Shown piece after piece: positions 1-6,000 of a stretch of DNA of 64,000 nt; position 1 is the stretch's first letter, and every line of letters begins with the position of its first letter. Made by a program: the position numbers. The stretch lies in assembly GCF_054482525.1 (NCBI RefSeq), contig NZ_CM137006.1; one strand, given 5' to 3'.

Positions 1-3000
1 GCCTAAAGACTGAGCGGAAAAATAGCTGGCTTTCATTCCTGGCGGCGCAATATGGTCAATCAACATATACTCGCCCGGCGCATAAATGATTTCACCGACA
101 GTAAATACCGCAGCTGACATACCCCACAATAGCAGGCTGTTGCCGGAAAAAATAAAACCGACCAGCCCAATGACGAAACAGAGGGTGCCTGCTGTCATCA
201 GCGCGCGGATGTTAGCCGGGTTAAGTCGGCGGCCCACGGAATATTGCAACGTAACTACCATGGCAGCATTAACCGGAAGAACAACCGCAACCACCTTTTC
301 GGCAAAATCACCATCAGCAATCACCATCACATATTGTGAAATGCACGAGGCAAATGCGCCGCTAACAAAGGAAGCCAGAAAACCAGAGCAGGTAAACCAC
401 AACAGTGCTTTATCTTGTAATAAAACTTTCGGCGACCAGGCACTGCCTGTTTCCGTGGCGATGATTTTCTCGCTGCGCTTTACCCAAATTTGAATGAAAA
501 GCATGGGAAACGCGGAACAGATAGCTGCCAGCCAAAAGGGCAGATTGATGCTCTGCATCACCAACAGCGTGCCGAGCGGCGGACCGATGGTCCAGCCAAT
601 GTTGAGCATGGTGTAGTTGATTGAGAAGATTTTCGTTTTGCTGGTGGAGGAAAGATTGTCGGCAAACCAGGCTTTCAACACGGTAGCAAAAACGGAATAG
701 GCGCAGTTAATAAGGGCAAAAAAGAGCACCACCAGCGTCACGTTATTCACTAAAGGAATGGCAATAAAACCGCTGGCGAAGGCGGTAATTGCCAGTAACA
801 TATAGCGTTTCTTGTCGAACTTATCCGCCAGGATACCAAAACCGAGGCTAAAAACGACGCCAATAGTGAGCGCAATTGTCATCGCATAACCGATTAGATC
901 GACACTCAGGTTGTACTGGCGACTCAAGTAAATGGTCATAAACGGCAGCGTAGCGCCGCGTCCGATGGTTAATAACAACGACGAGGCAAGAAGGGCGCTG
1001 GTAGAGCGTCGTAGGGATAAGTTCATTTGTCTGTCCGGCAGTGCGTTTCGTTATGTTTTGTTTTAGAGATGTAAAGAAATAGCATGGCAAAAATCCGAAG
1101 TATAGCGACTTATTTGCGCATTAATGCCGTCGTAATCGCCGACTAACTAATCAACTGTTAAAGAAAAGTAAATTCAGCTAAGTTGATTGCTTACAAAAGA
1201 TGAAATTCAGAGGCGGTAGAATGTCGCGAAAAGATGGGGTGTTGGCGCTACTGGTAGTGGTCGTATGGGGGCTAAATTTTGTGGTCATCAAAGTGGGGCT
1301 TCATAACATGCCACCGCTGATGTTGGCCGGTTTGCGCTTTATGCTGGTTGCTTTTCCGGCTATCTTTTTTGTCGCACGACCGAAAGTACCACTGAATTTG
1401 CTGCTGGGGTATGGATTAACCATCAGTTTTGCGCAGTTTGCTTTTCTTTTTTGTGCCATTAACTTCGGTATGCCTGCTGGACTGGCTTCGCTGGTGTTAC
1501 AGGCACAGGCGTTTTTTACTATCGTGCTTGGCGCGTTTACTTTCGGTGAGCGACTGCATGGCAAACAATTGGCGGGGATCGCCTTAGCGATTTTTGGCGT
1601 ACTTGTGTTAATCGAAGATAGTCTGAACGGTCAGCATGTGGCGATGCTCGGCTTTATGTTGACCCTGGCGGCAGCATTTAGTTGGGCGTGTGGCAACATC
1701 TTCAATAAAAAGATCATGTCGCACTCAACGCGTCCGGCGGTGATGTCGCTGGTAATCTGGAGCGCTTTAATCCCAATCATTCCCTTCTTTGTTGCCTCGC
1801 TGATTCTCGATGGTTCCGCAACCATGATTCACAGTCTGGTTACTATCGATATGACCACCATCTTGTCTCTGATGTATCTGGCGTTTGTGGCGACAATTGT
1901 TGGTTATGGGATCTGGGGGACGTTACTGGGACGCTATGAAACCTGGCGGGTTGCACCGTTATCGTTACTGGTGCCCGTAGTAGGACTGGCAAGTGCGGCA
2001 CTATTGTTGGATGAACGCTTAACGGGTCTACAATTTTTCGGTGCGGTGCTCATTATGACCGGGCTGTATATCAATGTATTTGGCTTGCGGTGGCGTAAAG
2101 CAGTAAAAGTGGGAAGTTAATAAGCCCCGAGATGTCGGGGCCAGAACAAACTACATAGCGTGTTGATTATAATAGGGCACGCCGAGCGCATCCGACTTAT
2201 CACTGCCAGTACCCATGTGATTTAAATCAAACGGTGGTTGTTCCTGCGATGGGGGAACAACCACGACATTGGCACAGGAAGTAACAACCTGCTGCGTGGT
2301 TTGTTCCGCAATGCCCTGCGTGGAAAAGAGAATAAACGCAGCTGCTATTGCGGATAAAAGTGGTTTCATGATTGCCTCAGTGACGTTGTCACGTTATCAA
2401 CTAGCTGTTGTAATGATTTAATGGATGTAAAAAGCGCGATTCGCCCTGCATATTGGTCATCCGGTATTTATGCGGCGGAACATCAAAGTAATTTTTGAAG
2501 GTTCGGGTCAGAGTTTGTTGCGACTCGAAGCCATATCGTTCTGCCAGATAGAGTATTGGCTCGTTACTTTCCTTCAGCTTTTGCGCGATTTCCGTCATCT
2601 TACGGCTGCGGATGTATTGGCCTAATGAATGACCGGTTTCTTTTTTAAACATCCGTTGCAGGTGCCATTTGGAGTAACCCGAACGCTCTGACACTTTCTC
2701 CAGTGACAGTGGCGATTCCAGGTTGTCCTCGATCCAGTCCAAAATGCTATGAATGGTAATAGCGTCAGTATTGCGTCTGGACATCGTCATACCTCTTTTT
2801 TTGTTTACGGCAGGACTTTCTTAAGCAAATGCTCAAGTGTTGCCACTTCGTCCGCCGTCAGGTTTTTTGTTAATTCTTGATGCAGGTCCTGGCCAACTAA
2901 TTGATGGCATTGTTCACATATTGCCGCGCCGCTGGTGGTAAGTTTTACCAGTACGCCGCGCTTGTCATTCGGGTTCGGCAACCTTTCCACCCAGCCTTTA

Positions 3001-6000
3001 CAGACCAGGCGATCCAGCATACGGGTCAGCGCTCCCAGGTCGACCGACAACACTTTTTTCAGTTCAACCGGAGTAATACACGCCGCGCAGCGGATAGAGC
3101 AGAGCACCTTAAACTGTGCCGCGGTAATATCCAGCGGAGACAGATACTCGTTAAGCAGGCGATCTTTCTTCTGATTAACCATATGGATTAAGCGACCCAA
3201 TGGAATAATTTCATTGAACAGATCGCTGGTACTTTTCACATTAGTTGCCCTGGCAAGTAATTAGTTGCAGGGGATAATATTGCCCAGGCAAGTATAAGTC
3301 AAATGAATGAATTGACCGATGCCACGTTTTGCTAAATCGGTTCAAGTTTTGGTCAGTGCGATGCAAGGTTAGCTAAAGAGTGACACTTTATCGTTGTTTA
3401 CCCCTTATACTTTTCGCTGATAACCCAGATACACAGGATAACAACCACCAATGTTAGATTTATTTAAAGCAATTGGCTTGGGGTTGGTGGTGTTACTACC
3501 GTTAGCTAACCCATTAACAACTGTCGCGTTATTTCTTGGCCTGGCAGGCAACATGAACAGTGCCGAACGTAATCGTCAGTCGTTGATGGCCTCGGTGTAC
3601 GTCTTTGCCATCATGATGGTGGCGTATTACGCCGGGCAACTGGTGATGGATACATTTGGCATTTCGATTCCCGGTCTGCGAATTGCAGGCGGCTTAATCG
3701 TCGCGTTTATCGGTTTTCGGATGCTCTTTCCGCAACAGAAAGCAATTGATTCACCGGAAGCGAAAAGCAAGTCGGAAGAGCTGGAAGATGAACCCAGTGC
3801 CAATATTGCCTTTGTACCACTGGCAATGCCAAGTACCGCCGGTCCGGGAACCATTGCAATGATTATTAGCTCGGCGTCCACAGTGCGTCAGAGTTCAACC
3901 TTCGCTGATTGGGTGCTGATGGTTGCGCCGCCGCTGATCTTTTTCCTGGTGGCGGTTATTTTGTGGGGAAGCCTACGCAGCTCTGGCGCAATTATGCGGC
4001 TGGTGGGCAAGGGAGGCATTGAAGCGATCTCCCGCCTGATGGGATTCCTGCTGGTATGTATGGGTGTGCAGTTTATTATTAACGGCATTCTGGAAATCAT
4101 TAAAACGTACCATTAAAAAAGGCCCGAATGGGCCTTTCAACTATTGCGTCTGTTCTTCGAGTGTCACTGGCCAGCGGCGAAAAATGATGATTGACCATAT
4201 TAACGCGGCAAAAGCAGGCACCGCGCCCACATAACCAATCATCGACATTGACCAGTGCAGACTGACCTGATTACCTACCAACGCGCCAGCGCCGATTCCA
4301 ATATTAAATATCCCCGAGAATAGCGCCATCGCGACGTCGGTGGCATCTGGTGCCAGCGCCAGCACTTTAACCTGCATACCAAGCCCGATGATCATCATCG
4401 CGATCCCCCAGAAAATACTTAGCACCCCGAGGTGTATTTCACTGTTCGCCGCAGGTAGCAGCAGTGCGAGGCACACCAGCAACAACGCAATCGCCGTACT
4501 CACCAACGCAGACGCATACTGATTACCCAGTTTCCCGAAAATCACGCTGCCAATAATGCCCGCACCACCGAGTAATAACAGTAATGCCGTGGCAAAGTTG
4601 GCGCTGAATCCCGCAATGTTTTGCACAAAAGGCTCGATATAGCTGTATGCCGTGTAATGGGCGGTGACAACCACCACAGTTAACAAATAAATGCTCATTA
4701 ATGCCGGGCGGCGGAACAATAGCGGGAGGCTTTTCAATGAACCGGAATGCTCACTGGGCAGCAAGGGAAGTAACTTAATCAGGCACAAAAGGGTAATAAA
4801 CGCCCCGATACCAATCGCGAAGAAGGTCATTCGCCAGCCAAAATACTGCCCCACAATGCGCCCGAGAGGTAAACCTAATACCATTGCCAGTGCTGTACCG
4901 GTGGCAATTAAACTCAACGCCTGCGCTCGCTTCCCGGCCGGAGCCATACGGATCGCCAGAGACGCCGTAATCGACCAGAAAATCGCATGTGCAAAAGCCA
5001 CACCAATGCGACTGATCACCAGAACGGTAAAACTCCACGATAAAAACGACAGTACGTGGCTGGCAATAAACACCACAAACAGGCAGATCAGTAATTTGCG
5101 TCGTTCAACCTGGCTGGTCATTAACATAAAAGGCAATGACATTAGCGCCACAACCCATGCATAAATCGTCAACATGATGCCGACCTGAGCGGTTTGCATG
5201 TGAAAACTTTGCGCAATGTCAGAGAGCAGGCCAACAGGGACAAATTCGGTGGTGTTGAAGATGAAGGCGGCGACTGCCAGCGTAACGACCCGTAGCCACG
5301 CCACTTTGCGGGAAACAGTGTTTGTTGTCATAACAGATTATCGGGTGAGTTGCGAAAAAGTGATGAAATGATCTTAAAACGGTTAATGATGTGAATACAA
5401 TGCATTTGTGATCTGGATCGCGTTTTCCGTTTCTCTGACGCTGATTCTGTTCCGCGTCAGAGAGTCGGTAACATCACGGTTTAATGACGTTCAGGGAGGT
5501 CTGGCGTTTTGGAGGTTGCGGGTATAGGTGGTCTGACAGGGGAGCGAGGCCTGTTTTTCACCAGGTCTTCGTGAGTAACTTTTGGCGGTGTTTCATTTTT
5601 TACAAACAGTTTGAGGGTCCTGCGCGCCATATGTTTGATAATTTTATCATCACTTAATGATGCTGGCATCAACACGTCATTCAAATCACTTTCATTGGGA
5701 TTCATAAATTGGTGATAGTGCAATAACATATTGGCGAAAAATAAAAACAAGTCCTGAAAATGAGGGGGTTCTTGTTCTGCTAAAAGGGATAAAAAGCAGA
5801 TACAGACTTCGGGTAGTACATGTTTGTTAGAACCTAATGAATCCATCAGACTTTGCAATAAATCCTCTTTTAATTCGCTGTCCTTTATGTCAAGAATGGC
5901 GGTGATCAAGTTAGGCTCTTTATTGACGAACCATCTGTGAACTTCAGAGTTATTCCATAATCGGGGGAGTATGACAAAATTACCGCGAGAGATAAAATTC

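Follow-up and report, generated by a model that had tools for sequence, protein, structure and literature searches.

The marR gene in a non-K-12 Escherichia coli contig carries the majority Ser103/His137 haplotype

We analyze a 64,000-nucleotide stretch of contig NZ_CM137006.1 (RefSeq assembly GCF_054482525.1; hereafter, the window) in which marR, the gene for the repressor of the marRAB operon, encodes serine at residue 103 and histidine at residue 137, where the K-12 reference has glycine and tyrosine. Our conclusion, to which we assign a probability of about 0.9, is that this is an intact wild-type gene that encodes a functional repressor and has the ancestral, majority Escherichia haplotype, Ser103/His137. 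The polymorphism itself is already known, well documented, and ordinary. The sequence comparisons given here show that the direction of change is opposite to what the notation “G103S/Y137H” implies: it is K-12 that changed, and the isolate from which the window comes has the ancestral residues.

The marR coding sequence occupies positions 2805–3239 on the minus strand, with a GTG start codon and 144 amino acids followed by a stop; read on the plus strand, the same interval is full of stops. On the S103 side, the translation of this minus-strand ORF contains VKLTTSGAAICEQ. Over its entire length (residues 1–144 on profile positions 1–144), the product matches the MarR equivalog profile of NCBIfam (NF008565) at 320.1 bits (cut-off 240), and residues 38–96 match the winged-helix MarR/SlyA family of Pfam (PF01047) at 66.6 bits. 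The Pfam match, together with an AF2 model of moderate confidence (mean pLDDT 72.8), gives the winged helix-turn-helix with N- and C-terminal dimerization helices by which the MarR family is recognized. The assignment to MarR itself is further supported by the position of the gene in its operon and by two marO palindromes that overlap the promoter and leader, and the RefSeq annotation of the identical stretch in strain SCU-102 calls the gene marR. It is the same gene as that of E. coli K-12 MarR (b1530, UniProt P27245; PDB 1JGS, 3VOE, 3VOD, 5H3R, 4JBA, 3VB2), with the same length, GTG start, and operon position.

Aligned to marR of K-12 MG1655 (NC_000913.3, 1619120–1619554), which served as the reference, the gene differs at 6 of 435 bases (1.4%; 98.6% nucleotide identity), and 142 of the 144 residues are shared. 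Four of the differences are synonymous (codons 62, 63, 70, and 120). The other two fall in codon 103 (2931–2933, minus strand), which reads AGC (Ser) in the window and GGC (Gly) in K-12, and in codon 137 (2829–2831, minus strand), which reads CAT (His) in the window and TAT (Tyr) in K-12. The alignment bears out the original prediction, which had placed S103/H137 in the window and G103/Y137 in K-12. We checked whether K-12-type sequences might already have S103/H137 and found G103/Y137 in all three, namely MG1655, BL21, and 3VOE, the last being the best match among six PDB MarR sequences (all E. coli MarR) and the sole one aligned residue by residue. The surrounding 4.46 kb has 91 differences from K-12 (2.0%), and the 1.4% seen in marR is no higher than this.

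The background of the window is not that of K-12. Over its first 25 kb, it matches SCU-102 and 19KM1776 at 100% identity and PCN033 at 99.9%, whereas the mar region is only ~98% identical to K-12 (~2% diverged). The original prediction had suggested a non-K-12 background, in part from the states of hipA and yneO, and these agree with the identities: hipA is truncated and yneO intact in the window, whereas in K-12 hipA is intact and yneO is a pseudogene. None of the Clermont marker genes lies within the 64-kb window; the phylogroup was inferred from the nearest complete genome, PCN033, which belongs to phylogroup D (PMC4578781).

We also considered whether the whole window is equivalent to SCU-102 and rejected this, as the identity stops at position 31,625, inside dif. 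With up to three mismatches allowed, no intact dif is present in the 64-kb window, the site being split by a prophage. This filamentous prophage forms a tandem array of at least 3.7 identical copies.

The marR gene is the first of marRAB, in a neighborhood (eamA-marBAR-marC-ydeA) that is syntenic with K-12. Two palindromes of the form TTGCC-N2-GGCAA, to which no strand is assigned, precede it: one at 3245–3256 (TTGCCCTGGCAA), after the promoter and before the start of marR, and one at 3280–3291 (TTGCCCAGGCAA), in the spacer between the -35 and -10 elements. Both are identical to K-12, and they are the only two matches to the motif in 64 kb, against 0.17 expected. From what is known of marO, we take the first to be MarR operator site II by its position; the second corresponds, again by position, to operator site I. 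The marRAB promoter-like site lies at 3274–3302 on the minus strand and consists of a -35 TTGACT (3302–3297), a 17-nt spacer, and a -10 TATTAT (3279–3274); it matches 10 of 12 consensus positions in a consensus scan and is identical to K-12. From 3240 to 3351, there are zero differences from K-12.

Among the neighboring genes, marA (2401–2784, minus strand; 127 amino acids by the RefSeq start), which encodes the activator repressed by MarR, has one synonymous nucleotide difference from K-12, and the MarA protein is identical. Divergent from marRAB, marC (3451–4116, plus strand) has 18 nucleotide differences, all synonymous, and a protein identical to K-12 MarC. The 72-residue product of marB (2151–2369, minus strand) differs from its K-12 counterpart at six amino acids (S5L, L12F, A17T, V20I, P27Q, and H44Q), most of which are common variants (PMC8597741). 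Compared with K-12, the marR-marA spacer has one extra A, and the intergenic region has 4 SNPs in the part near marC. Operator and operon are thus directly seen to be intact, as is the marR sequence.

The K-12 MarR protein is a dimeric winged-helix repressor that acts at two palindromic marO sites, which overlap both the promoter and the leader of marRAB. It keeps the expression of marA low until it is released, either by an inducer such as salicylate or through the oxidation of Cys80 mediated by copper. Cys80 and the entire stretch of residues 88–101 are conserved in the window's MarR. We propose that the S103/H137 protein would bind both marO palindromes and keep marA low until an inducer is present; that its repressor activity is normal we infer or take from the literature considered below.

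To place the two residues in the species, allele-specific searches were run over 5,426 complete E. coli genomes, 5,415 of which have marR. S103 is present in 4,222 genomes and G103 in 1,190, while H137 is present in 4,220 and Y137 in 1,194; the two alleles add up to 5,412 at residue 103 and 5,414 at residue 137. S103/H137 is therefore the state of ~78% of E. coli genomes and G103/Y137 that of ~22%, in keeping with the original prediction that the window's residues are common natural polymorphisms in non-K-12 isolates. A search with K-12 marR at ≥ 99% identity returns 1,189 records, which matches the G103 count and indicates two discrete haplogroups. By name, the K-12 haplotype was seen in K-12, BL21, and J53, and in some natural isolates as well. 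On the other side, the majority natural E. coli MarR (WP_000843419.1; found in O157:H7, ST131, strain W, PCN033, and SCU-102) has the same residues at 103 and 137 as the window. The marR gene of PCN033 is 100% identical to the window's at the nucleotide level, and 2,012 records are at least 99% identical. Other E. coli lineages add S3N or K62R in MarR, and the window's gene has neither.

These comparisons also dispose of a sequencing or assembly error as the source of the two codons. The identity of marR in PCN033 and the 100% match to SCU-102 and 19KM1776 over 25 kb rule it out, and the occurrence of the same two alleles in over 4,200 genomes likewise contradicts it.

The polarity of the change was read from four other Escherichia species (E. 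albertii, E. whittamii, Escherichia sp. MOD1-EC7003, and Escherichia sp. E1V33), a sample from which E. fergusonii is absent. As all four have both S103 and H137, this is the ancestral as well as the majority state, and the G103/Y137 of K-12 and BL21 is a linked, derived minority haplotype. Because Salmonella and some Citrobacter MarR proteins have Y at 137, the ancestral state of that residue is clear only within Escherichia and is ambiguous at deeper levels. Under the account that we propose, K-12, BL21, and the ~22% of sequenced E. coli like them carry a derived and tightly linked pair, and the apparent “mutations” stem from the use of K-12 as the reference.

The two residues occupy variable parts of the protein. 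Across 31 Enterobacteriaceae MarR orthologues, 99 of 144 positions are invariant, and at least three residue types occur at just 13 internal positions (start codon aside), which include 102, 103, and 137. Position 103 is S, D, H, or E, with G solely in K-12-type sequences, and position 137 is H, L, or Y. In the AF2 model, strands 84–89 and 92–100 form the beta-hairpin wing (84–100), which is followed by helices 102–123 and 129–142; the post-wing helix has residue 103 in its first turn, and the C-terminal helix contains residue 137. Neither residue, according to this moderate-confidence model, lies within the recognition helix or the wing. Since both positions are variable and modeled outside these elements, Ser/His versus Gly/Tyr would be a lineage marker and not a derepressing mutation.

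A different possibility is that both haplotypes are functional repressors that differ quantitatively, for instance in how stable their dimers are, how tightly they bind the operator, or how sensitive they are to inducers, with G103/Y137 an adaptive or compensatory pair. The biochemistry of K-12 MarR would then be an inexact guide to that of most E. coli. The almost perfect linkage of two non-synonymous changes (1,190 versus 1,194 genomes) would fit such a pair, but two sites separated by 102 bp on a clonal haplotype that also has four synonymous differences should be linked in any case. Gly103 is found in no other sampled orthologue, residue 103 opens the post-wing helix in the AF2 model, and the C-terminal helix, where the model places residue 137, contributes to the dimer interface in MarR structures; against this, both positions tolerate many residues, and the literature cited below reports no phenotypic difference. 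Most MarR biochemistry was done on the K-12 G103/Y137 protein, all the solved MarR structures that we found are of E. coli MarR, and the one aligned is of the K-12 type. On balance, we consider the quantitative difference unlikely, and we are similarly doubtful that K-12 MarR is a derived double variant measurably different from the ancestral S103/H137 protein in its affinity for the operator, the stability of its dimer, or its response to inducers. If it were true, textbook K-12 would not give the set-point of the mar regulon for ~78% of natural E. coli.

The reading of the two residues as resistance mutations derives in part from annotation tools. The substitutions reported by CARD-RGI are exactly the two in the window's MarR, and the corresponding CARD model is [quoted passage not shown] On this reading, which is often given to CARD-RGI output, G103S/Y137H would be loss-of-function changes that weaken repression by MarR and so lead to more MarA, more AcrAB-TolC, and multidrug resistance. 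CARD-RGI output lists both as resistance-associated (PMC9961978 Table 2), some genome reports describe the pair as inducing overexpression (PMC11504656, PMC7546912), and an 8-fold up-regulation of acrA has been tentatively linked to it (PMC8976530). The last comparison was not isogenic, however, and none of these three reports attributing acrAB up-regulation to the pair includes isogenic controls.

Several observations argue against loss of function, which we regard as very improbable. The pair is present in 78% of complete genomes and in every other sampled Escherichia species, so it is not a mutation relative to the ancestor; a mar mutant, by contrast, has a derived change relative to its wild-type ancestor that arose under selection. 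The in vitro-selected mar mutants include L33R, A70T, and G15S (PMC11753663), with frameshifts being another kind. Whereas such bona fide mutants have derived loss-of-function changes, the window has ancestral residues, a full-length protein, and no sign of derepression in its sequence. Fully susceptible isolates with levofloxacin MICs of 0.016–0.25 µg/mL carry the pair, which shows no association with levofloxacin resistance at any level (PMC4317672). PMC11753663, citing Oethinger 1998, states that the two substitutions are without effect on repressor activity. In isolates from Norway, these are the MarR substitutions seen most often (PMC7082582), and the pair by itself has not been shown to raise efflux (PMC8597741). 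In addition, residues 103 and 137 vary freely among orthologues. The original prediction, according to which the two polymorphisms are not considered resistance-conferring, is thus in line with both experimental and epidemiological studies (PMC4317672 and PMC11753663), with the caveat that CARD-RGI and some genome reports dissent.

The biological weight of an ancestral S103/H137 haplotype is small, as it amounts to a lineage polymorphism in a well-understood repressor. It does carry a caution: with K-12 as the reference, it is routine for these two ancestral residues to be listed as “marR mutations.” Resistance-gene callers such as CARD-RGI flag them, and would do so in about four of every five E. 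coli genomes. The allele counts, which are direct observations, and the outgroup polarity show that the derived state belongs to K-12 and not to the isolate. The S103/H137 pair can also serve as a marker that sets the window apart from K-12/B-type lineages.

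The marR gene occupies 2805-3239 on the minus strand as a 144-codon ORF with a GTG start (the plus-strand translation of this interval is broken by stops), and its product is MarR. The protein scores 320 bits against the NCBIfam MarR equivalog (cut-off 240) in a match spanning the full length, contains the Pfam MarR winged-helix domain, and is encoded within the canonical gene order eamA-marB-marA-marR / marC-ydeA. Base-by-base alignment with marR of K-12 MG1655 (NC_000913.3, 1619120-1619554) yields six nucleotide differences. Four are synonymous (codons 62, 63, 70 and 120), and the other two are GGC > AGC at codon 103 (2931-2933, minus strand; G103S) and TAT > CAT at codon 137 (2829-2831, minus strand; Y137H); around residue 103, the translated ORF reads VKLTTSGAAICEQ. 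This alignment bears out the original prediction that the window carries S103 and H137 where K-12 has G103 and Y137. The possibility that K-12 itself already has S103/H137 was checked, and G103/Y137 was found in K-12, in BL21 and in 3VOE, the best match among six PDB MarR sequences (all from E. coli) and the one compared residue by residue.

We measured the frequency of each allele across 5,426 complete E. coli genomes using 55-base megablast queries in which base 28 is the SNP. As every 28-base seed must span the SNP, matches are restricted to genomes with the queried allele. S103 was found in 4,222 genomes and G103 in 1,190; for residue 137, the counts were 4,220 for H and 1,194 for Y. The pair totals (5,412 and 5,414) nearly equal the 5,415 genomes having any marR, so the method splits the collection almost completely. 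The near-equal allele counts, together with the 1,189 records at least 99% identical to K-12 marR, point to two separate haplogroups, each tightly linked. Members of the S103/H137 group include O157:H7, ST131 and strain W, while K-12 derivatives, J53 and BL21 fall in the G103/Y137 group, as do natural isolates of human, pig and dog origin. Separately, marR-like sequence occurs at five plasmid sites in the collection, and a marR match is absent in 11 of the 5,426 genomes. In at least one genome, HS1496 (NZ_CP142382.1), only 59 bases of marR are left beneath a gene annotated "transcriptional regulator"; this genome and those lacking a match are candidates for true marR loss.

The direction of change was examined in 31 marR loci, collected by scanning a single genome from each GTDB species with a degenerate pattern. 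S103 and H137 occur together in E. albertii, E. whittamii, Escherichia sp. MOD1-EC7003 and Escherichia sp. E1V33, as well as in a second representative labelled E. coli. The one sequence with G103 is a K-12-type marR (G103/Y137) on a contig assigned to a Caldithrix MAG (SMXE01000224.1, match 3501-3536); its protein is 97.9% identical to the window MarR, and the contig very probably reflects contamination of the MAG by E. coli DNA. Because all Escherichia outgroups sampled carry S103 and H137, this pair is ancestral within Escherichia, and the K-12 pair derived. The earlier reading of the two residues as common natural polymorphisms therefore stands, except for its direction: the majority pair, S103/H137, is the ancestral one, and K-12 belongs to a derived minority.

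Both positions are variable in Enterobacteriaceae, with S, D, H or E at 103 and H, L or Y at 137. Of the 144 positions, only 13 internal ones show at least three residue types, 102, 103 and 137 among them, and 99 are invariant across orthologues. In an AlphaFold model built from 16 orthologues (mean pLDDT 72.8, i.e., moderate confidence), the wing spans 84-100, residue 103 lies in the first turn of helix 102-123, and residue 137 falls within the C-terminal helix 129-142. Both residues are thus predicted, with moderate confidence, to lie outside the recognition helix and the wing.

MarR is a dimeric winged-helix repressor; bound at two sites in marO, it holds marA expression down until it is released by inducers. 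The palindrome TTGCC-N2-GGCAA has two matches in the entire 64 kb (chance expectation 0.17), at 3245-3256 and at 3280-3291, the latter falling between the -35 and -10 hexamers of a well-matched promoter (TTGACT-17-TATTAT, 3302-3274); this layout is that of the known MarR operator sites, II and I respectively. Over the 112 bp 5' of marR the window does not differ from K-12, and the regulatory region is intact. The MarA and MarC proteins are the same as in K-12, with one synonymous nucleotide change in marA (2401-2784) and 18 in marC, all synonymous. All components that MarR would need to repress marA are present in the window in K-12-like form, and Cys80 and wing residues 88-101 are invariant. 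Over 4.46 kb of the mar region, 91 positions differ from K-12 (2.0%), a level that marR (1.4%) does not exceed. Divergence within the operon is highly uneven: marB (2151-2369) has eight nucleotide differences and six substitutions (S5L, L12F, A17T, V20I, P27Q and H44Q), versus the single synonymous change in marA. The marR-marA spacer (2785-2804) is 20 nt versus 19 nt in K-12, the extra base (2796) lengthening the A-run that follows the marR stop codon and precedes the ribosome-binding site of marA.

The S103/H137 finding is already known, and its relation to resistance has been reported in conflicting ways. The resistance-gene caller CARD-RGI lists both substitutions as resistance-associated (PMC9961978 Table 2), and several genome reports say likewise or tie them to acrAB up-regulation, but the latter lack isogenic controls. 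Given the frequency of S103/H137 in E. coli and its ancestral status, we regard such a role as extremely improbable. G103S/Y137H were unrelated to levofloxacin resistance at every level, occurring in isolates with MICs of 0.016-0.25 ug/mL (PMC4317672), and no other MarR substitutions were as common among isolates collected in Norway (PMC7082582). The changes are reported to leave repressor activity unaffected (PMC11753663, citing Oethinger 1998) and are not known to raise efflux on their own (PMC8597741). These publications concur that the pair is neutral; that the two haplotypes differ in some subtler, quantitative respect is very unlikely.

The non-K-12 background proposed for the window is supported by its nearest genomes and by two further loci. 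Positions 1-25,000 match SCU-102 (commensal in a human, USA) and 19KM1776 (dog source) at 100% identity and PCN033 at 99.9%, the only three of the 5,426 genomes at 99% or above. PCN033 is O11, phylogroup D, with 97.56% ANI to MG1655 (PMC4578781); the phylogroup of the window is inferred from these relatives. As predicted, hipA is disrupted: downstream of an intact hipB (30384-30650), an N-terminal fragment with only the Couple_hipA domain is directly followed by a frameshifted ISNCY transposase fragment (together 30650-31542), whereas K-12 hipA is intact (440 aa). The yneO homologue (24753-30173) is, also as predicted, an intact 1,806-aa autotransporter (RefSeq "ECSE_1600 family autotransporter") at the position of the K-12 yneO pseudogene.

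Identity with SCU-102 ends at 31,625. SCU-102 has a perfect 28-bp dif at the equivalent of 31,612-31,639, and the window departs from it inside dif, after GGTGCGCATAATGT. From 31610 to 64000 lies a tandem array of three complete 8,743-bp units plus a fourth that the end of the window cuts off after 6,146 bp; the copies have zero mismatches among them, and an identical hybrid dif-like site, GGTGCGCATAATGT|GCTACACGTTATG, opens every one. Each unit has genes for an HTH regulator, a replication protein (G2P), a coat protein that binds pili (G3P), a Zot-like ATPase for assembly and a secretin. The unit is ~67% identical to filamentous phages I2-2 and IKe over ~52% of its length, and its best coverage among the 5,426 E. 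coli genomes is 73%. The array is a Xer/dif-integrated filamentous (inovirus) prophage in tandem, a known kind of element with CTXphi, CUS-1 and YpfPhi as precedents, and is of more interest than the MarR finding.
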